Shown: positions 4,519 to 63,060 of the stretch, one piece after another
How the letters are laid out: each line of letters starts with the position of its first letter
Numbering within the stretch: position 1 is the stretch's first letter
NCBI RefSeq assembly: GCF_004010195.1
Contig: NC_057749.1
Span: 13,700,543-13,764,542 of the forward strand
Source: Chiloscyllium plagiosum
Taxonomy: Eukaryota
Direction of reading: 5' to 3'
Length of the DNA stretch: 64,000 bases
The notes under the pieces: generated by a model
What the model saw: only the letters and a program-made list of their open reading frames with translations
What the model was told of the DNA's origin: nothing
Database searches by the model: none
Made by a program: the position numbers and the translations under genes

Positions 4519-6165
4519 TCGTCATTGTCTACAGGAATAGTGCCAGAAGACTGGAGGATAGGAAATGTGGTTCCCCTGTTCAAGAAGGAGAGTAGAGACA
4601 ACCCTGGTAATTATAGACCAGTAAGCCTTACTTCAGTTGTTGGTAAAGTGTTGGAAAAGGTTATAAGAGATAGGATTTATAATCATCTAGAAAAGAATAA
4701 TTTGATTAGGGATAGTCAGCATAGTTTTGTGAAAGGTAGGTTGTGCCTCACAAACCTTATTGAGTTCTTTGAAAAGGTGACCAAACAGGTAGATGAGAGT
4801 AAACCGGTTGATGTGGTGTTTATGGATTTCAGCAAGGCGTTCGATAAGGTTTCCCACAATAGACTATTGTACAAAATGCGGATGAATGGGATTGTGGGAG
4901 ATATAGCAGTTTGGATCAGTAATTGGCTTGCTGAAAGAAGACAGAGGGTAGTGGTTGATGGGAAATGTTCATCCTGGAGTCCAGTTACTAGTGGTGTNNN
5001 NNNNNNNNNNNNNNNNNNNNNNNNNNNNNNNNNNNNNNNNNNNNNNNNNNNNNNNNNNNNNNNNNNNNNNNNNNNNNNNNNNNNNNNNNNNNNNNNNNNN
5101 NNNNNNNNNNNNNNNNNNNNNNNNNNNNNNNNNNNNNNNNNNNNNNNNNNNNNNNNNNNNNNNNNNNNNNNNNNNNNNNNNNNNNNNNNNNNNNNNNNNN
5201 NNNNNNNNNNNNNNNNNNNNNNNNNNNNNNNNNNNNNNNNNNNNNNNNNNNNNNNNNNNNNNNNNNNNNNNNNNNNNNNNNNNNNNNNNNNNNNNNNNNN
5301 NNNNNNNNNNNNNNNNNNNNNNNNNNNNNNNNNNNNNNNNNNNNNNNNNNNNNNNNNNNNNNNNNNNNNNNNNNNNNNNNNNNNNNNNNNNNNNNNNNNN
5401 NNNNNNNNNNNNNNNNNNNNNNNNNNNNNNNNNNNNNNNNNNNNNNNNNNNNNNNNNNNNNNNNNNNNNNNNNNNNNNNNNNNNNNNNNNNNNNNNNNNN
5501 NNNNNNNNNNNNNNNNNNNNNNNNNNNNNNNNNNNNNNNNNNNNNNNNNNNNNNNNNNNNNNNNNNNNNNNNNNNNNNNNNNNNNNNNNNNNNNNNNNNN
5601 NNNNNNNNNNNNNNNNNNNNNNNNNNNNNNNNNNNNNNNNNNNNNNNNNNNNNNNNNNNNNNNNNNNNNNNGTGCAGCCGCACTTGGAGTATTGTGTACA
5701 GTTCTGGTCACCGCATTATAAGAAGGATGTGGAAGCTTTGGAAAGGATGCAGAGGAGATTTACTAGGATGTTGCCTGGTATGGAAGGAAAGTCTTACAAG
5801 GAAAAGCTGAGGGACTTGAGGCTGTTTTCGTTAGAGAGAAGAAGGTTGAGAGGTGACTTAATAGAAACATATAAGATAATCAGAGTGTTAGATAGGGTGG
5901 ACAGGGAGAGCCTTTTTCCAAGCATGGTGACGGCGAACACGAGGAGGCATAGCTTTAAATTGAGGGGTGATAGATATAGGACAGATGTCAGAGGTAGTTT
6001 CTTTACTCAGAGAGTAGTAAGGGTATGGAATGCTTTGCCTGCAACGGTAGTAGATTCGCCAAGTTTAAGTACATTTAAGTCGTCATTGGACAAGCATATG
6101 GACATACATGGAATAGTGTAGGTTAGATGGGCTTCAGATTGGTATGACAGGTTGGCGCAACATTG
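4519..6165 (+). mobile_element. Relatively young CR1 LINE, 5'-truncated, RT region split by an assembly gap
   Basis: Open RT frame VPEDWR...NYRPVSLTSVVGK...DFSKAFDKV...VTSG before the gap and PHLEYCVQFWSP...RLRGDLIE...FFTQRVV..WN.LP after it. Confidence 0.95.
4998..5671. other. Assembly gap (674 N)
   Basis: Run of N. Confidence 1.
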
Positions 6166-12238: not shown

Positions 12239-13232
12239 CTGGATGTAAGTTTGCTCGCTGAACTGGAAGGTTCATTTTCAGACATTTCGTCACCATACTA
12301 GGTAACATCATCAGTGAGTCTCCAGTGAAGCACTGGTGTTAGTGAACCGATTTTATTTGTGTGTTTAGGTTTCCTTGGGTTGGTGACATCATACCCTCTG
12401 GTACTGTCATTTCCTGTTCTTCTTCTGAGAGGGTGGTAAATGGGATACAAGTCAATGTGTTTGTTGATCGAGTTCCAGTTGGGATATCATGCTTCTAGGA
12501 ATTCTTGTGCGTGTCTCTGTTTGGCTTGTCCGAGGATGGATCTATTGTCTCAGTCAAAGTGGTGTCCTTCCTCATCTGTACGTAAAGATACTAGTGAAAG
12601 GGGTCATGTCTCTTTGTGGCTAGTTGATGTTCATGTAACTTGGTGACTACTTTTCTGCCTGTTTGTCCAATGTAGTGTTTGTTACAGTTCTTGCAAGGTA
12701 TTTTGTAAGAATTGTCTGTATAAACTAATGTCATTTATAAAATACCTTGCAAGAACTGTAACAAACACTACATTGGACAAACAGGCAGAAAACTAGCCAC
12801 CAGGTTACATGAACATCAACTGGCTACAAAAAGACATGACCCACTCTCACTAGTACCCTTACATACAGATGAGGAAGGACACCACTTCAACTGGGACAAT
12901 GCATCCATCCTTGGACATGCCAAACAGAGACACACGCGAGAATTCCTAGAAGCATGGCATTTCAACCAGAACTTTATCAACAAGCACATTGACTTGGACC
13001 CCATTTACCACCCTCTGAGAAAAAGAACAGGAAATGACACCACCAGTAGAAATGATGACACCAACCCAAGGAAACCTAAACACAAAAATAGAAAGCGGGT
13101 TGCTAACACCACTGCTTCACTGGAGGCTCACAAATGATGTTACCTAGTATGGTCTGAAAATGAACCTTCCAGTTCAGCAAGCAAACTTACATCCAGAACC
13201 TCAACCTGAGCTACGAATCTTCTCAAAATCCG
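12239..13232. mobile_element. Fold-back Penelope-like element (two inverted GIY-YIG/pLTR arms)
   Basis: Arms ~12239-12708 and ~12736-13196 are reverse complements. The right arm encodes NVIYKIPCKNCNKHYIGQTGRKLATRLHEH (GIY-YIG). TSD tttacatagagactgg / tttacactgagactgg. Confidence 0.92.
12278..12317 (-). ncRNA. Minimal hammerhead ribozyme motif in a Penelope pLTR
   Basis: Minus strand reads tca-CTGATGA-t-gttacc-tagtat-ggtgac-GAAA-t-GTC-tga: core boxes, stem II, short stem I. Activity untested. Confidence 0.65.
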
Positions 13233-25745: not shown

Positions 25746-25869
25746 CGTCAATTGATGCATCAGCAGTTCCATTAAAAAGGTGATCTTGTTACTGAACAGA
25801 ACATAGAAGCAGTTGTCATAGCAGCCACGACAGGCAAAGCAGTATGCATTAATCACATTGCACAGGGAT
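25746..25869 (-). CDS. SCAPER: SCAPER internal coding exon (SLCNVINAYCFACRGCYDNCFYVLFSNKITFLMELLMHQLT), 124 nt
   Basis: Acceptor ttttctttttgcag|A, donor ACG|gtagga; 1+123 nt keeps frame with both neighbours. VLFSNKITFLMxLLxHQLT is characteristic of SCAPER. Confidence 0.95.
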
Positions 25870-51272: not shown

Positions 51273-54002
51273 CTAGGCCTTCTCATTCATTGATGGTGCT
51301 GTACTCTTTTGAACATTGCACTTCAAAAGCTGAATTCTCCCTTTTTGATTTTCATTCTAATAGAATGCGGTTACTTCAGATGCCAACAGACAATCTATAT
51401 GTAACAAAGGTCCCTCCAATGCCTGCTGCACAGACATAAACCAAATAAAAACCTGTATACTCTCAACATCTAGTCTGTTTAGCGGAGTAGCTGCCAAAGT
51501 ATCCATGGAGAACAGACAGCAAAGTGGATCATGTAACTCCCTTAATAAAATACAAATCTGATTAAATGCAGGATTTGTTGATAAATTGGGAATTTCTCAA
51601 CTGTTGTAGAGTCATTGAACAGGAATACTGAATACTACACTTGAATTAATAAGCTTTATAACATTTGTCATGATTCAGGAGCCTTTAGCTTCAACAGAAG
51701 CATTAAAAGGATTATGATGGGGTGGGTCATGGCTTGCTATTTGTTACTGTTAACTAAATCAAATTCTCAGGAAGCTAAATTTTTCAGAACAGAGTGATTT
51801 GTTTTTAAAAACCAGATCATAAAATGCAACAAAACCAAAAACAATTTCTCTGCCTTCTGTGAAATGAGGAAAATTTAAAAGTTTCAAAAGTGTTTATTAT
51901 TTGGCATTAAGCACCAAAAGGGTTAAAAGTATAATTTTTCTTTGCAAAGCTTTGTCCATTCAGCAACTGCATAAACTTTAAAGATGGAAGAAGCTATTTT
52001 TCTCAATCCCTCTCTGATGGGACACAACAAACCTTTTGAAGTTCAGTTCTATAACACAAGAATCCAAGCCAGGAATCCAATTTTAGGAATGCTTTATGCC
52101 TACTAATTATATAAAATAAACCACCATGAGTCAGTCAGTGAAAATAAAGATTTCACTGTATGTTAAACTCTTATGATAATTCCAAACTGTAGCTGGAATG
52201 CAGAACTCCATGGCTGAGTGATACATTTTGCCTCTGAACAAAGGCTAGGGTTTGAAGTCCAAGAATGGAAGCTAGAAGACAAGGATTTTGTTATATTAGT
52301 GTGTATGATTAGAAACAAATGATTTAAAAGTGTACCTGAGAGACTTTGCCAGTCAGGCAAATGCTGGAAGTGAAAAAGTAAAAATGAAAAACGATGGAAA
52401 TGCACACTGATTTTGTTAGCATCTCAAAACCAATGGGGAAGATTAACAAATCTTAAACGATCTTTTTTTCTTTAGATGCTATTAGACTCACCTCAGAAAT
52501 GTCCAATGGAATGAATGCATATAAACTATAAACAGGCGGGGCTGTTCAAACCCAGTCTATTAAGCTGCAATTCAATTCTCCTAGCTTAGTCATTCTAAAC
52601 ATGTTCACAGTTTGTCTTGCTACCCTGTTTTGTTCCAGGCAATGAGCACTCATTGCCTGAAGATGCTCTTTCTTACATCTCTTCAGAAAGCATTTCTCAT
52701 GGGTTTTGTTTACAAATACACCCATTGTTTAAGTGATGGAGAATAAAACTCTATTTTACTTGGTCAAGAAACAAACTTGGGTGAACAAACAAAAATTTGT
52801 AACAAACAAATGCTGGGATAATTTTTCGACCAATTTCCCCTTACAGTCATTGGGAATTTAGTTCATTATTAGCTGAAATCACAAATTCATTTACGAATGG
52901 CTAACATCTGCCTGCATCCAATCACACAGATAATGCAACACTATGATAATCAATTTTGAATTACTTATTTAGAATTATTTTTGAAATCCACGTGACAATT
53001 TTATTTTTGTGTAAAATGATTGTTGCGCAAACAGCAAATACAACTGTACATGGTTTCAAAACAGCAAACCAATTGCTTCATAACAGCAGTATCAGACAAA
53101 ATCTCAAGTCACATAAAGACACATTAGGCCAGGTGACCAAAAGCTTGGTCAAAGTGTAGGGAGGGTTTAAGAAAAGTAACAAAGGAGGAGAAATAGAGAG
53201 ATGTGCATGTGGAGGGAGAGAATTCCATAGCTGAGGGCTCATGCAGTTGAAAGTAAGGTTGCCAACAGTTGAGAGAAGGAAATCAGGGATCCAGATGAAA
53301 CTAGAATTGGAGAAAGATACTATTCAACTGCATAACTAGTTATAAAAAAGAACACGGTGAGATCATGGAGAGATTTCAACACAAAGGTATCAATGACAAT
53401 AATAATTAACAATAATAAAGCTTGTGCAGGAAGACAAAGGGATGAATATTAATTTGGGCTGATACAGCTCTACATATTTGAATGGAAATAATGATTGTAC
53501 ACTGGCACAGGATGCTAGTGTGCCTACCTGTTAAACTGCACAACTGCAGCTTTGTACCATCTACTGTTGATATGCCAAGTTCCTAATGACACCGGAATCA
53601 GAGGAAAGTGATAAGAGATACTTCTGAATTTTCTATAGTGGAATGAACAACTCAAAATTCAACATCTTTAATGTACCCAGCAGCAGGACTGAGAGAGTTC
53701 GGCACAAAAAATTAATGAAACAATGATGCACGGGGTAAGAAAATCTAATCCACTTGTTCTTTAAGACATTAAGCAGCACACTAATTTCAGGTACAGGATT
53801 GATTGCAAGTATGAAAGTCTCCTCGTCGTGTTACATAACAAAAAGGCAGTAAAAGAAAATAACATGCATTTATGAGTGCCTCAAGTTCCTGGGATGTTTC
53901 AAAATTTTTTCCCATGTAATATATTACACTTTCACATGAAGATATTTTTATTCAGGCAAACCCAGCAGCCAAATTGCACGCAGCAGGTTTAATAAACAGT
54001 GA

Positions 54003-55016
54003 ACTAATAATCACTTAGATATATTTCTACTGTGGACATTTCGTGACAGTTTGATAAACACAAACCTATTTCATGCAGGATCTTTACCACTTACAGACAG
54101 GAAAATCTGTGACAGATCTACTTCCAGGTCAATAGGTGAACATTATCCAACTGTACTTGATAATGTACAGGTGATAAACTATTTAATCTATTGATTGAGG
54201 GAAGAACTTTGATTAGGATAATGGGATAACTTCCTACTCTTCTGTGAATGGCATGAAGGGATTTTTTACATTAGTCTCCAGATTCAGTCTTCATTCAACA
54301 ATTCATTCAACAAAGGTGATGCCCCAATCCCCTGTTTGTTTATACCCAGAAACAGACAATCAATGTAGAAAGACTCGTTTTGAAAAGCAAGCTTTAGAGC
54401 AAGGTACTAACTTGACTGGAATCCGAGGAGAAATATTAGGGCTGGAAACTGTATTCACAACTTGAAGGATTTGCTCAAGAGCAGTTAGACCTCCACCAAC
54501 TTGGAATCCGATTTGATCTGCATTATTCTGCAATAGAAGGAAAAGGAACATTAGTCAGAAACCTCACATTGTCATGTACTCAAGCTCCACTCACTAAGCC
54601 TCTTCCCTTTCTAATGAGATTTATATGACAAATGGTCGACAAGAAGACCAAGAGTCCTGCTGAAAGAAGAAAGGAGCTGAGTTATTCTCAAAGACAATTA
54701 CACTCCCACACTAGCCATTCTGAATTTCTTGTCCTTTTATTTGCAAAACAGCGCAATCTATCATTTGAAGTCTTTTTGACTTTATTATGATATGTAGAAC
54801 ATTGTTGGTGAATCCAAACGTTTGTGCATTAAATGTGACCATTAGGTCACCTATTGCTCAAAGTACAGTTGGATAATGTTCACCTATTGACCTGGAAGTA
54901 GATCTGTCACAGATTTTCCTGTCTGTAAGTGGTAAAGATCCTGCATGAAATAGGTTTGTGTTTATCAAACTGTCACGAAATGTCCACAGTAGAAATATAT
55001 CTAAGTGATTATTAGT
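54003..55016. repeat. Perfect 156-bp inverted repeat (54003-54158 / 54861-55016)
   Basis: Base-by-base reverse complement from actaataatcacttag...ctgtactt to aagtacag...ctaagtgattattagt; no mismatch seen. Confidence 0.97.
54412..54527 (-). CDS. SCAPER: SCAPER internal coding exon (NNADQIGFQVGGGLTALEQILQVVNTVSSPNISPRIPV-K), 116 nt, phase 0 to 2
   Basis: Minus strand has acceptor ttccttctattgcag|AAT and donor AA|gttagt, with a branch-like ctgactaa upstream. The peptide matches recalled vertebrate SCAPER NVADQIAFQAAGGLTALEHILQ...RIPPK. The split Lys codon joins the next exon in frame. Confidence 0.93.
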
Positions 55017-57079
55017 ACTAATTTAATAACAAGACTTCAGGCATAAGAAAAGTGAAATAATGTAACTGTTCAACAAACAAATAATGTATATCGTTAGACC
55101 AATATGTGACATGTTATATTACAACTAATTAGTGCAATATAGTTGGCTAAGTCTCTATTGCCATGTTTAGTAACACAACTGTTTTTCATGAATTCAAAAT
55201 TTATGGAAAAAAAATTGGAATTGTGTGCCTTTGAAGAGGAAGTGCGTTACTAACTAATAAGAACAGGGCCTCAGCTTCAGATCAACACCACATTCCTTTT
55301 GGCATATGGTTTAATTTTTACAAGGTGAAACATGTTATATCTTTTGTTGATTTATTGTTCTTTGTTATAACATTCTAGGTTATAATTCTCGGGGCTGTAG
55401 AATGAGTGGCAAGAAACTCTTAGCTGGCACGTGTTACATAGAAAACACCATAATCAAAGAGATACTTGGTTTTCAAAGCTGATGATTAATTTATGACTAC
55501 AATCCAGAAAATAAATTATTTTGAAAGTTGTGAGTAATGTGTGTCCAGTCTGTACACATCCTACTTAAGCTTGAGAGGCACTATACTTGAAGAAGAGAGC
55601 TATTCAGAAAGCCGAGTGACTGAAGTCAAATGAGGTCAGGACAACATCTGCAAAGTTGACAATGAACTAACATGATGATTGACACATACTGGAGAGGGAT
55701 TGATTTAATTTGATTTATTACCGTTACATGTACCTAGACACAGTGAAAAGTTTTGTTTTGCATTGAGTACAGGCAGATCAATACTATACAAAGTGCATTA
55801 GGGTAATAGAGAGAAGAATACAATGCTATGGTTGTAGAAAAAGTGTACAAAGAGCAAGATCAACATTAAATTTGAAATTTGAGAGGTCCATTCAGTGGGA
55901 AAGCAGCTTTCTTGAATCTGCTGCTATGGTATGCCAGCCAAACACAACCAACTGACCTTAGTGCCCTGTCCCTCTATTTATTTTTCTGTTTGCTACTAAA
56001 CCAAGTGTAATGTTTTCAAAATCATAATATTACTGAAACTTTGTTACAGCTGCCATTAACCATTTGTACCAATACCAATTTAGAATCGAAAACCAATTTA
56101 GAACAAAAAGTACGGATGAAATGCTTCACTTTCACATATTGCACATTATAATAGAGCATGCAATAAACAGTTAATTGTGCTGTTGCACTTTAATAGCTCA
56201 GCTATAAAATAGTCACTTCAGGTTTATCATTCTTAAAACAAGCCACCTTCAAAAAGCAACAGAAGTTCTAGGTCTACTCTGCCAGATGCACTACTGGGTG
56301 CTCTTGGCATCTTGAGATGGCAGATCACCAGCTGCTACACATCCAGGAGTACAGGGCAGACAAAATATGCACAGCTTTATGAAAGCAGTGAGGCAAGAAG
56401 GTGCATCAAACAGAAAAGCAGTAGTTGCAACATAAAAATAGGCAATTTATCCCAACTAATATACATTTTCCTCTTTATATATAAAATAATTTCAAACATA
56501 TTTATGCATTTCATTTTCAAACTCCCCTAACTGCTATTCTTTCATCCCCCTCAATTAAATTTCCACAGGCAAAACACTTCTCGTCTTTTGTTCTAAATCT
56601 CAAATTTAATCTTGTAACCATGGCCCATTGTTCTGGGCCACTCAAATACTGGAAATAGCTTTAAGATGCTTTTATGTTATAAAAAGGCAGCTGATGACAC
56701 TTGTTCAGTTTTCCCAAGGGCCAATTTATATTGGCCCAGAGGCAGAAGAATCCACTTTATGACTGGAATTGTCATGGGAATCACTGCCTTAAACTTCCGG
56801 ATGTGTAGCTGATGGAGATTAGCAGAAAATGGAAGCATCAAAAAGAGTAAGTGGCATAAAGATGCTAGTATTGTACATTCCCCTTAAAATGGCAATGGTA
56901 AAATGCTTGCATATGGAGGTATCACTGACCTGGTTTTTAGACTGGACAGTTTAGTTTTGAGTGCCCTGTTAGGCCATTATCCAGTATTATTTAGGACAGG
57001 GCTGACCAAAACATGGTTCAGAATCTAAAATGGGATGTGAGCTAAAGGTTTGGGGACCTGAGCTCCAAGCAGCAATGGG

Positions 57080-58595: not shown

Positions 58596-60883
58596 GCACC
58601 AAAAAGATATTCTGTCCAATGGGGTCACAGAAGGAAAAGATTTGGGAAGCAAATTAAAGCATTCAGCCAAACTCGCCCTTGCCAGAACATGTAAATGTAA
58701 AATATTTGAACACAACATACGGACACATGACACCAAATTTAGATTTGTAAAACACAATTCCATTTTTGCCTTTTTATCTCCAGCTTTATATGGTGGGTTC
58801 ATTCATGATCAAGATTCCTCAGCTTCTTAATTTAGCTCCACGAACAAATTGAATACACTTAATTGTTCCTTCCACTGTCAATCCTCAGTTTTAATGTCCC
58901 ACCTTTGGCAGTCTCACGTTCAGCTACTGGAGCACTAAGCTCTGGGATGCTCTCCCTAAATCTGTCTGTTTCTCCACCCATCCCTCTTTGTTCTTTTAAC
59001 AAGTTCCTTAAAACTTATTTCTTTAACAGAGAAATTTGCCCTAATATCCTCTCAGTGTGCCTGTATCAAACTTTCATTGATAACAGTCCTGTGAAGTGCC
59101 TCAAGATACTTTGTGTGAAAGGTGTTATGTAAATGCAAGTTGAAGTTGTTCCACTCGGGTGCAATGCTGGATGTCAAGTCTCAAGATAACAAAAAACATA
59201 ACAGATGAAAAAAATAAATAAGTAAATTAGAATAAATGAGCCAAGTTGACACTCACTCAAAATGAAAATAAACTGAACATAATGACAGACAGGATGGAAA
59301 AGATTTAAATGCTGTAATCCCTTCTGCAGACTTAGGGAACTGTTAGAATTGCGCAAGTGCATTTTTTTTGCAGGTTTGCAGTGTTTTCTTTGTAACCAAG
59401 CCAGCAGGAGGTGCATGAGCATCAAGTGGAACTTTTCTTTGTGTGGAAACTTTTGGGCCTCTATACTCTGTCACTTAAGTGATCAGACAGATGAAGTTGG
59501 GGGGGGAGGGGGGTCACAACACAGGTGAAGCTGCAGCCACAAGGGTGCATCCTACAGTATGCCCATGGTACACAGAATTGGAGCTGTTTCAAATGATTGG
59601 AATGAGGTAATTTCAATGAAACTTGAAAAACATCGTGAGAGTAAGTATCAAAGAGAACATTTTTGAGGAATTGCTAAGGTAAAACATATGAACACTTTTG
59701 CTATTTTAGCAAAACTGCCATTTTCATTTTGGTTTCTCAGGTGGGCTCATGGTTGATGCTCAATTGCAGTCCAACTTTATTTTTACATCAGTCTCCTTAT
59801 TGTGTTTGGCATCATTTCTAACTCCAAGGGACAGCAGAATCCATTGGGCATTGACTGAGTCAAGAATGATTATCTCAGAATCAGTTTTCATTTAGAAAAT
59901 GATTGATACATCATGTTTAAATATTCCGAAAAAACATTATAGGCATGTTATTAAATCCTGGCAATCATTGAATATTAGAAAGGCTAATTTAATATTTCAG
60001 ATATCTTAACTCAAGAGACTCAAATTATACAGACGAATACATTCACTGCCTGGAAAGGTGGTAAAAGTACGTTAAATAATAACTTTCAAAAAATAATTGG
60101 GGAGTGAAATTGCAGGATTGTGGAAAAAGAAGCAAAAAAATGGGGACCAACTGCTAACTCATTTTAAGAGCTGGCATAGTTATGATGAGATGTAGGGTCT
60201 CCTTATGTTCTATATAATTCCATGATTCTACAATACTGCCATCTCCTGATCAAAAGAACAGATTTTACTCACATTCAACTATTTACAACTTCCCCTGTTA
60301 CAGACTATGTAAAGGTAATGCTCTCTAATGATCTCAGCAGAATGGTTTACACTAATTCATTTGAATAAAAAACTCCATTTCAATATGAATACCTCAACAT
60401 AAGGTTTACTAAATTATACAAGAAAATGGAATGTTAGCTATTGAACATGTTGTTTTGGTTTGTTAGTCACGGCTATGCTGACATGAAAGAGAATTTATAT
60501 TTTTGGCCTAACCTCCAGCTTGGAAAATTGAGCTACCTTTCACATGTAGCTGAAACTGCATAGCAAAATGCAACACCTTTTTGACCCAACCTATCTTGTG
60601 CTACAGTAATAGGTTTTATATTGGAGAGAAGCATCTTTCTCCCCATGGAAAGTGGTTAAGTATGAACAATTGTTTTTAAAAACTGATTTGAGGAAATATG
60701 TGACATAATAAAATATGGTGCTACATATCAGGATATGTTTCACTGTAATGAGAAACTGAGATGAGATTAAGGTCTGGAAAGCATCCTCGTTTTATTCATA
60801 CTTTTGAAAAAGTCACACTTTGGTTGTACATGTGCAAACTTTAAGCTGTCAAAATTTCCTTTCTGAAAACAGGTAGGGGTTTT

Positions 60884-61544
60884 TGCAAGGTTTGTAGCTC
60901 AAGTTGAGGTTTAGGGTGTAGGATTGCTCGCTGAGCTGTACGTTTGATATCCAGACATTTCATTACCTGGCTAGGTAACATCATCAGTGGTGTCCTCCAA
61001 GTGAAGCGAAGCTGTTGTCTCCTGCTTTCTATTTATATGTTTGTCCTGGATGGGGTTCCTGGGGTTTGTGGTGATGTCATTTCCTGTTCATTTTCTGAGG
61101 GGTTGATAGATGGTATCTAGATCTGTGTGTTTGTTTATGTCAAATTGGTGGTTTTTTTCATCCGGGTGTAGGACTATGAGAGAGAGAGAAGGTCGTGTCT
61201 TTTTGTGGCTAGCTGGTGTTCGTGTATCCTGGGCCTACACCCGGAAGAAAAAAAACCCACCATTTCGACTGGGACAACACATCTATCCTGGGACAGGCTA
61301 AGCAAAGACATGCCAGAGAATTCCTACAGGCCTGGCACTCCAACCATCAACCCCTCAGAAAACGAACAGGAAATGACATCACCACAAACCCCAGGAACCC
61401 CATCCAGGACAAACATATAAATAGAAAGCAGGAGACAACAGCTTCGCTTCACTTGGAGGTCGCCACTGATGATGTTACCCAGCCAGGTCATGAAACGTCT
61501 GGATATCAAACCTACAGCTCAGCGAGCAATCCTACACCCTAAAC
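60884..61544. mobile_element. Fold-back Penelope-like element with rearranged centre
   Basis: Arms ~60909-61107 and ~61346-61544 are near-perfect reverse complements. HHFDWDNTSILGQAKQRHAREFL.AWHSN GIY-YIG remnant. TSD aaacaggt(ag/ca)gggtttt. Confidence 0.92.
61463..61502 (+). ncRNA. Minimal hammerhead ribozyme motif (mirror copy at 60951-60990, minus)
   Basis: cca-CTGATGA-t-gttacc-cagcca-ggtcat-GAAAC-GTC-tgg; stem II carries one mismatch. Confidence 0.65.
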
Positions 61545-61559
61545 AGGTCAGGGTTTTGA

Positions 61560-63060
61560 GCACAATGTATTGTGCTGGAAAGCAAGCGGAGGTCTGTGAT
61601 CTCAGGCTGATGGGAAACAAGGTGGATGAAGGTGTATTACATCTAACAGTATTTCAGAGCTTACGGAGGATGGGAGGCCAGGAGCAAGTAGTTAAATCTG
61701 AAGGTGACAAAGGTTTCTTTAGCAGAGAATGTATGACAGGGACAGGCAACATTACAAAGGTGGCAGCTGAAATCTTGCTAAGTGATTGGAGGAGAAGCTT
61801 AAAGCTCACCAAAGTTTTTGCAAATTATTTGGTCTCAGGATCTGGATGACATTTGAAAAGCCTTGTTCGGTGCCAAATGTTAGCTGCCCTGAGGTTGGGC
61901 TTCTCAACTGTAGTTATGCTGATGTTGTTCATAGGAACAAGAGCAGCCCATGTTAAAACATTTCAAGATATTGACCCTGTAACAACAAAGCAATGATAAT
62001 ATACATCCACGTCAGGATAGTTTGAGAGTTGAAGAGGAACTTGTTGCTGTAGTTGTGATAATTCTTTTCTTGCCCCTTGTAATGACAAACTTTCAATGGT
62101 AATAAAGTGCTGTCAAAGTGAGGCTGAGAGTCATCCAGATTGAAAGTGAGAAAGTCGACAGTAGAGATGGGGCTGGAATCATGTGGTGGGAGGTCAGTGC
62201 TAAACTGGAGGAAGCTGCAACTTATTCAGGACCACACCATGAAACAGAAAGAAAAATATTGAAGATATTTAGAAATAGATGCATGAACATTAAAAAATAT
62301 AAAGGAGTTACATAAATATTGAGAAACTGAAAAAAAGAGAATAAAAAGACAGAAAGAGAAGACAGATCAGCAAGACTTAACGCTTTCTAGTCATGGCTAT
62401 ACTCACATGAAGAGAGTTTACATTTTTTGCCTAACCACTAGCTTGAAAAAGTGAGCTTGTCAGTATTTAAAACTGCACAGCAAAAACAATTGTTCACACT
62501 TACCTTTCTCCCCATGGAAAAACGTTACTTCTCTGCAATATAAAATCTATTATTGTAGTACTAGGTAGGTTGGGTGCATTTTGCTATGCAGTTTTAAATA
62601 TTCATGAAAGGTAGCTCAATTTTCCAAAGTTTTGATAGACAAAGGGCTTTGAGAGCATGACAAATGTGGGAGCTTCATCTGCACAGTTTCAAATGGGAGC
62701 CTAGTCATAAAATATGACAAACACCAATGACCTCGAAACTTGAGGCAAGGAGACTGTCTTCAAAGAGGAATCTCTGGCATTTCCCTCAGAATTGAAGGAC
62801 ACAGAGGGTCAGATATTGCTGAAGAGGGAGTAGAGGGAGGAGTGAGATTGCCTTCAGTGAAACAAAGGAAATTTGGGAGAGAGGTGATAAAGGGAAATAG
62901 GGCAAAGGGGAAAGAAAGATAGAGATACTAAGATACTAAGTCTGATGGTAGTCCAGTAAAAGGTCACCTCTCTTCAACAAAGTAGAGGATTTTTGGAGGA
63001 GAATAATTAATAAACAGCTTAAAGTAATGAAACTGGAGCAATCACAATCAGCAGGGGGGG
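61560..63060 (-). mobile_element. Highly degenerate L2-like LINE remnants (discontinuous)
   Basis: Purine-rich segments resembling reversed L2 RT sequence; no intact motif. Confidence 0.4.

Follow-up and report, generated by a model that had tools for sequence, protein, structure and literature searches.

The question raised by this locus is whether the perfect inverted repeat that brackets a single coding exon of SCAPER in the assembly of the shark Chiloscyllium plagiosum is a genuine structure, which might act on the splicing of that exon, or whether one of its two arms is a product of the assembly itself. The window, that is, the whole 64,000-nt stretch of DNA that was analysed, corresponds to C40:13700543-13764542 of an assembly of 3.56 Gb in 101,977 contigs. 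The features on which the argument turns are the following, with positions counted from the first letter of the window.

25840..25869, minus strand: start of the next downstream SCAPER exon, an exact match of the loose end of the spliced contigs, preceded by a polypyrimidine tract and AG.
53955..54002, plus strand: left part of a degenerate SINE, interrupted by the left arm; read by eye against L004, with approximate boundaries.
54003..54158, no strand: left arm, a perfect reverse complement of 54861-55016 that occurs in the assembly alone, without support from read-derived contigs.
54159..54168, no strand: filler of 10 nt, GATAATGTAC, separating the left arm from the point where the SINE resumes, missing from the read-derived contigs.
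54169..54250, plus strand: right part of the degenerate SINE, matching L004 at 51 of 62 positions (82%) in the window interval 54189-54249; 3' boundary approximate.
54412..54527, minus strand: SCAPER coding exon of 116 nt, with the 3' splice site AG at 54529-54528 and the 5' splice site GTTAGT from 54411.
54861..55016, no strand: right arm, the genuine ancestral source, in the upstream intron.

The comparison of the window sequence with itself revealed that the two arms (54003-54158 and 54861-55016) are 156 nt long each, 100% complementary and separated by a 702-nt spacer, so that, as a description of the assembly, the claim of a perfect 156-bp inverted repeat around a SCAPER exon holds in every element. 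A 64-nt piece of the arm hits the two arm sites alone in the window (dinucleotide shuffles expect 0.00 hits), and among the ten inverted pairs of at least 40 nt lying within 5 kb of each other in the window the arm pair is the only one with 100% complementarity, the remaining ones being 78-98% complementary. The search of the whole 3.56 Gb assembly returned exactly two matches of the arm, both at the SCAPER locus; thus, the arm is no dispersed repeat. The spacer, too, is single-copy in the assembly, except for the SINE fragment that it shares with L004.

The exon enclosed by the arms, whose sequence reads NNADQIGFQVGGGLTALEQILQVVNTVSSPNISPRIPV, is a real one. Indeed, when its 45-aa in-frame reference was used in a protein search, 431 of the 449 scored candidates gave E<=0.01; of the 120 matches listed (out of the 449 scored), almost all bear the name SCAPER (S-phase cyclin A-associated protein in the ER); among the matches listed, shark proteins match the exon reference at 93-98%, and the exon peptide is identical at 37 of 38 positions to residues 1043-1080 of one shark SCAPER. 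The search of a protein atlas with the 38-aa exon peptide gave no usable match, and the listing of open reading frames between 40 and 64 kb contained nothing beyond the exon frame. The transcript side was provided by public sequencing runs, four of which were aligned to 53400-55600, all of them as contig sets: X1 and X5, from Chiloscyllium plagiosum and from two studies; X9, from the same species and guessed to be RNA; and X10, from a sister species. X5 and X9 come from two studies, and the exon occurs in spliced contigs of both with the same loose ends on either side. The downstream loose end places the next SCAPER exon at 25840-25869; the exon is therefore normally spliced in both samples, and the downstream intron, the would-be carrier of the left arm, spans 28,542 nt (from 54411 down to 25870). 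The upstream neighbouring SCAPER exon does not lie within the 64-kb window. Since the exon is 116 nt long, its skipping would shift the reading frame. The kind of library of X5 is unrecorded; its intron contigs have a depth of 8-32 and a spliced exon contig reaches 66, a behaviour like that of RNA rich in pre-mRNA or of a mixed library. Among the runs listed as containing the stretch, none was recorded as RNA.

The analysis of the read-derived contigs at the left arm revealed a different sequence from that of the assembly. In the contigs of three of the four runs (X1, X5 and X10), position 54003 is joined directly to position 54169 with 'TG' (equivalently 'ATG') standing where the window has 54004-54168; the 165 nt skipped by this join comprise the 10-nt filler and all of the left arm except its first base. 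The joining contig of X1 is 4,450 nt long and shows no other difference over 2,036 aligned bases; that of X5 is 405 nt long with one difference; and that of X10 is 4,415 nt long, with 55 substitutions in 2,036 bases (2.7%) and small indels. The read support on which the sequence-only reading had made the left copy depend is not there: within these contig sets, and contigs are the only form in which the reads were consulted, the left-arm junctions 54002|54003 and 54158-54169 have a supporting contig in none of the four runs, with X9 uninformative since it has no contig over 53998-54199 (nor over the right arm). The interval 54066-54139 has zero depth in all four runs, being bridged by the join in X1, X5 and X10, with X9 again uninformative. 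The right arm is crossed unbroken by contigs of X1 and X10 and by record 6 of X5 (54501-55189), a continuity that is unexpected if those reads contained a second, inverted copy.

The word counts are in agreement with these alignments. The best runs, X1 and X2, contain 0.97 of the sampled words, and no listed run reaches a higher value; the 31-mers that touch the left-arm junction or the filler are about 70 of 2,171 (3.2%), so that a run with everything else would be expected to show 0.97. Moreover, the words of a de Bruijn contig must exist in the reads, and the arm-less form is thus a real allele, shown in three runs. As regards the animals represented, X1 may or may not derive from the assembled one, and contigs drop rare variants and can drop a heterozygous one.

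The polarity of the event can be read from the SINE. L004, a second copy of this element located on another scaffold, runs straight through the point equivalent to the left-arm insertion, its upstream continuation, read by eye, being ...CAATGAGATAATGACCAG..., where the window reads ...CAGTGA, then the 156-nt arm and then GATAATGTACAG...; as L004 is uninterrupted at that point, the left copy is the inserted one. The comparison rests on this single copy, since the left SINE flank has no other match in the genome; blastn likewise detected no further SINE copies in the window. In addition, the arm-less form is common to the sister species and is therefore ancestral. The right arm is genuine, old sequence of the upstream intron, present in both species, and X10 differs from the window at seven listed positions inside it; at all seven the left arm is of the Chiloscyllium plagiosum type. 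A copy dating back to the species split would be expected, at 2.7% divergence, to show about four differences in 156 nt, and none was found. The identity of the two arms at this degree of divergence between the two species implies that the copy is either an artefact or very young. The proposed derived status of the left copy, as an insertion into the SINE inverted from the right copy, is thus borne out by the empty site in X1, X5 and X10. The same empty site, occurring in two conspecific runs and in the sister species, contradicts the idea of a lineage-specific fixed feature: the added left copy does not characterise the species.

The ends of the two arms exhibit some short homologies. A 12-nt palindrome, ATTAGT|ACTAAT (55011-55022), is centred on the outer end of the right arm, so that the base following that arm opens the same six letters with which the left arm starts. 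The word TCACCTATTG is present twice, at 54848 and 54880 (32 nt apart, within 54845-54890), on either side of the right arm's inner end, and its complement, AGGTGA, forms the first six bases past the filler, from 54169. These homologies lie exactly where the copy ends and the sequence resumes and could have served as guides for either a polymerase or an assembler.

Taken together, we suggest, with a probability of roughly 0.7, that both the left arm and the 10 bases following it represent a local error of the draft assembly, and we infer that its cause lies in the assembly process rather than in the sequenced animal's own DNA. According to this reading, a reverse-orientation copy of the sequence lying about 0.86 kb downstream would have entered the consensus, for instance through a gap filled in the wrong orientation or a chimeric read, and the erroneous stretch would have displaced 2-3 bases that are truly present. 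The true locus would then be an unbroken degenerate SINE within the 28.5-kb intron that follows an ordinary SCAPER exon of 116 nt, and the sole real copy of the 156 nt would lie 333 nt upstream of the exon; with one arm only, no intronic stem would form, and no driver of back-splicing, skipping or editing would exist. The locus resembles known local inverted misassemblies and chimeric-read insertions in that the junction words are missing from the read contigs whereas a read-supported alternative join is present, and in that the draft is gapped and contains, in mate-read orientation, a copy with 100% identity to its source, which lies within 1 kb. Both the distance of about 0.86 kb and the reverse-complement orientation are those of a mate read, and the complete identity of the arms is what is expected of a copy built from the same reads. 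The assembly is indeed a gapped draft, with runs of N of 674 (window 4998-5671), 576 (C40:13553970-13554545) and 1 (C40:13619837); gaps of estimated size together with a single N mark a scaffolded, gap-closed draft, which bears on the trust to be placed in odd local structures.

Some observations, however, do not fit an assembly error comfortably. The site adjoins no gap, the only run of N in the window being that at 4998-5671, and the junction is blunt, with an 8-nt snap-back match within the 10-nt filler, a pattern that a real template switch of a polymerase also leaves. A second perfect local inverted copy of at least 100 nt was found neither in 200 kb of the same contig (C40:13.5-13.7 Mb) nor in the self-scan of the window, and hence the assembly is probably not riddled with such errors. 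When the arm alone is excised, the resulting window sequence TGA|GATAATG fits L004 (TGAGATAATG) slightly better than the read-supported form does; that the filler restores this SINE-like word is an unexplained coincidence, and it counts against an assembly error. Concerning other representations of the locus in the assembly, no arm-less haplotig or second locus copy was found, the spacer search returning the locus itself and the L004 SINE only, and a pattern with both flanks 0-10 nt apart gave no assembly matches.

The rival explanation is that the insertion is real, namely a very young, private or rare structural variant of the sequenced animal, originated by a long-range template-switch mutation or by a templated insertion during end joining. 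The left arm would then be genuine shark DNA, a new and segregating or private inverted templated insertion of 156 nt: the polymerase would have left its template at 54002, used the opposite strand as template for 156 nt, from 55016 to 54861, made an 8-nt snap-back and returned at 54169, with 2-3 bases replaced. The filler carries the signature of such a snap-back, as its first 8 nt, GATAATGT, are the reverse complement of 54140-54147, 11 nt upstream (the 8-nt match occurs on the minus strand at 54140 and on the plus strand at 54872). A 12-nt match of the filler at window 14994 was also considered as a template; it lies in an unrelated repeat context and was taken as chance. Blunt junctions, the absence of a target-site duplication, an arm that is unique in the genome and a left arm of the Chiloscyllium plagiosum type at seven of the seven listed positions, which places the copy after the split, are all in agreement with this route, and the difference between window and contigs fits the four-point pattern, in which an inverted nearby copy replaces a short segment and a perfect inverted repeat results, as set out by Loytynoja and Goldman 2017 (PMC5453318). 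However, the events described in that work are short-range, whereas the copy discussed here comprises 156 nt taken over a distance of 858 nt and requires a further small switch to explain the filler. It also differs from them in that it occurs in no independent read set: the left-arm allele is seen in the assembly alone, is lacking in X1 and X5, the two conspecific runs with contigs over the site, as well as in the sister species, and no listed run exceeds 0.97 of the words. Local copying has a precedent on this scaffold, where an 88-nt direct repeat of 86% identity (L027) derives from 717 nt away; this old event was also considered as a sign of a systematic artefact and was set aside as a different phenomenon. 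Per genome, private inverted templated insertions of about 150 nt are presumably much less frequent than the local errors of gapped drafts, and we regard a real insertion as unlikely, even though it deserves to be taken seriously. If it were true, carriers, unlike non-carriers, would have a perfect intronic stem of 156 bp enclosing a SCAPER exon whose loss shifts the frame (with both arms transcribed, the full stem appears in the predicted fold of 1,041 nt, at -445.5 kcal/mol), and the locus would offer, in a cartilaginous fish, a natural experiment on whether one new complementary pair is followed by back-splicing, skipping or hyper-editing. It would also represent an unusually long and clean example of a template switch, and a presence/absence polymorphism for the effects of intron pairing on splicing.

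The other two explanations concern the structure as a whole. Reverse-complementary intronic matches, such as inverted Alu pairs, reportedly promote back-splicing and exon skipping (the names usually attached to this finding are Jeck 2013, Zhang 2014, and Liang and Wilusz 2014), and the arms might accordingly form a fixed, functional and lineage-specific inverted repeat that regulates SCAPER via a circRNA, frame-shifting skipping or ADAR editing. The geometry of the window suits this idea, with complementary sequences flanking a single exon at 253 nt and 333 nt from its splice sites, and back-splicing and exon skipping are the effects reported for reverse-complementary intronic matches (PMC8330042). 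However, a pair of this kind has both arms in the flanking introns, and here the left one is missing from X5, X1 and X10, so that the site is empty in both conspecific runs covering the locus and the pair is not fixed. X5 is informative in this respect, as it has an intron contig without the left arm along with spliced SCAPER contigs. Since only one arm exists in the animals that could be examined, the mechanism of the circRNA or NMD switch has nothing to act on; the contigs of X5 and X9 include the exon in the ordinary way, joined to both neighbours, and, among the contigs of the four runs aligned to 53400-55600, no back-splice, exon-skipping or spacer-inversion joint was observed, although contigs cannot show rare RNA forms. 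The known pairs, moreover, usually consist of two independent transposon insertions, whereas the left arm is a local copy that finds no support beyond the assembly. Thus, the lineage-specific circRNA or NMD switch that had been envisaged for this exon does not follow, circRNA formation, exon skipping and editing are not supported by anything in these data, and a fixed regulatory pair appears very improbable. Even less probability, indeed next to none, can be assigned to a fold-back or MITE-like transposon of 1,014 bp with 156-bp terminal inverted repeats that carries or has captured the exon. Its attraction lies in the likeness to fold-back elements and MITEs, which also have two long inverted arms around a short internal segment, and in the fact that fold-back repeats are common in this genome. 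However, the two matches of the arm in 3.56 Gb are both local and the spacer is unique, so that dispersed copies are lacking; there is no target-site duplication at the arms (the flanks are CAGTGA and ACTAAT, the left one ending in ...AACAGTGA and the right one starting with ACTAATTT...); and the interior consists of a conserved exon of the host, still flanked by its native introns and collinear with the sister species. Furthermore, the empty site lacks the left arm only, and not the entire 1,014 bp. The structure of the empty site, the lack of dispersed copies and of a target-site duplication, and the host-exon content refute the transposon, in agreement with the sequence-only reading, which had not recognised one here.

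The inverted repeat is therefore most likely an assembly error, and at best a private variant of one animal. This case also carries a caution, in that a striking symmetric structure around an exon in a draft assembly should be compared with the reads before RNA biology is inferred from it; here, the comparison goes against the inverted-repeat structure.

Other repeats of the surrounding sequence have a different character. The window intervals 12239-13196 and 60520-62627 contain nested or paired inverted repeats of 41-253 nt with 78-98% complementarity, which look like fold-back copies of an abundant repeat family, putatively hammerhead-bearing Penelope-like elements. L028 contains only a 59-nt fold-back pair with 86% identity, likewise an old event and no sign of a systematic artefact. 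A spacerless palindrome of 190 nt, 98.9% self-complementary, lies in L007 at 1753-1942 (C40:13511753-13511942); it is a natural repeat hairpin rather than an assembly fold-back, and its words CTGAAGA...GAAAC are, we presume, typical of the hammerhead-bearing Penelope-like repeat family. Finally, L018 comprises two direct copies of 446 nt (C40:13626710-13627155 and 13629509-13629954) with 99.8% identity and 2,353 nt apart, which may represent either a pair of young LTRs or a duplication that arose locally and recently.
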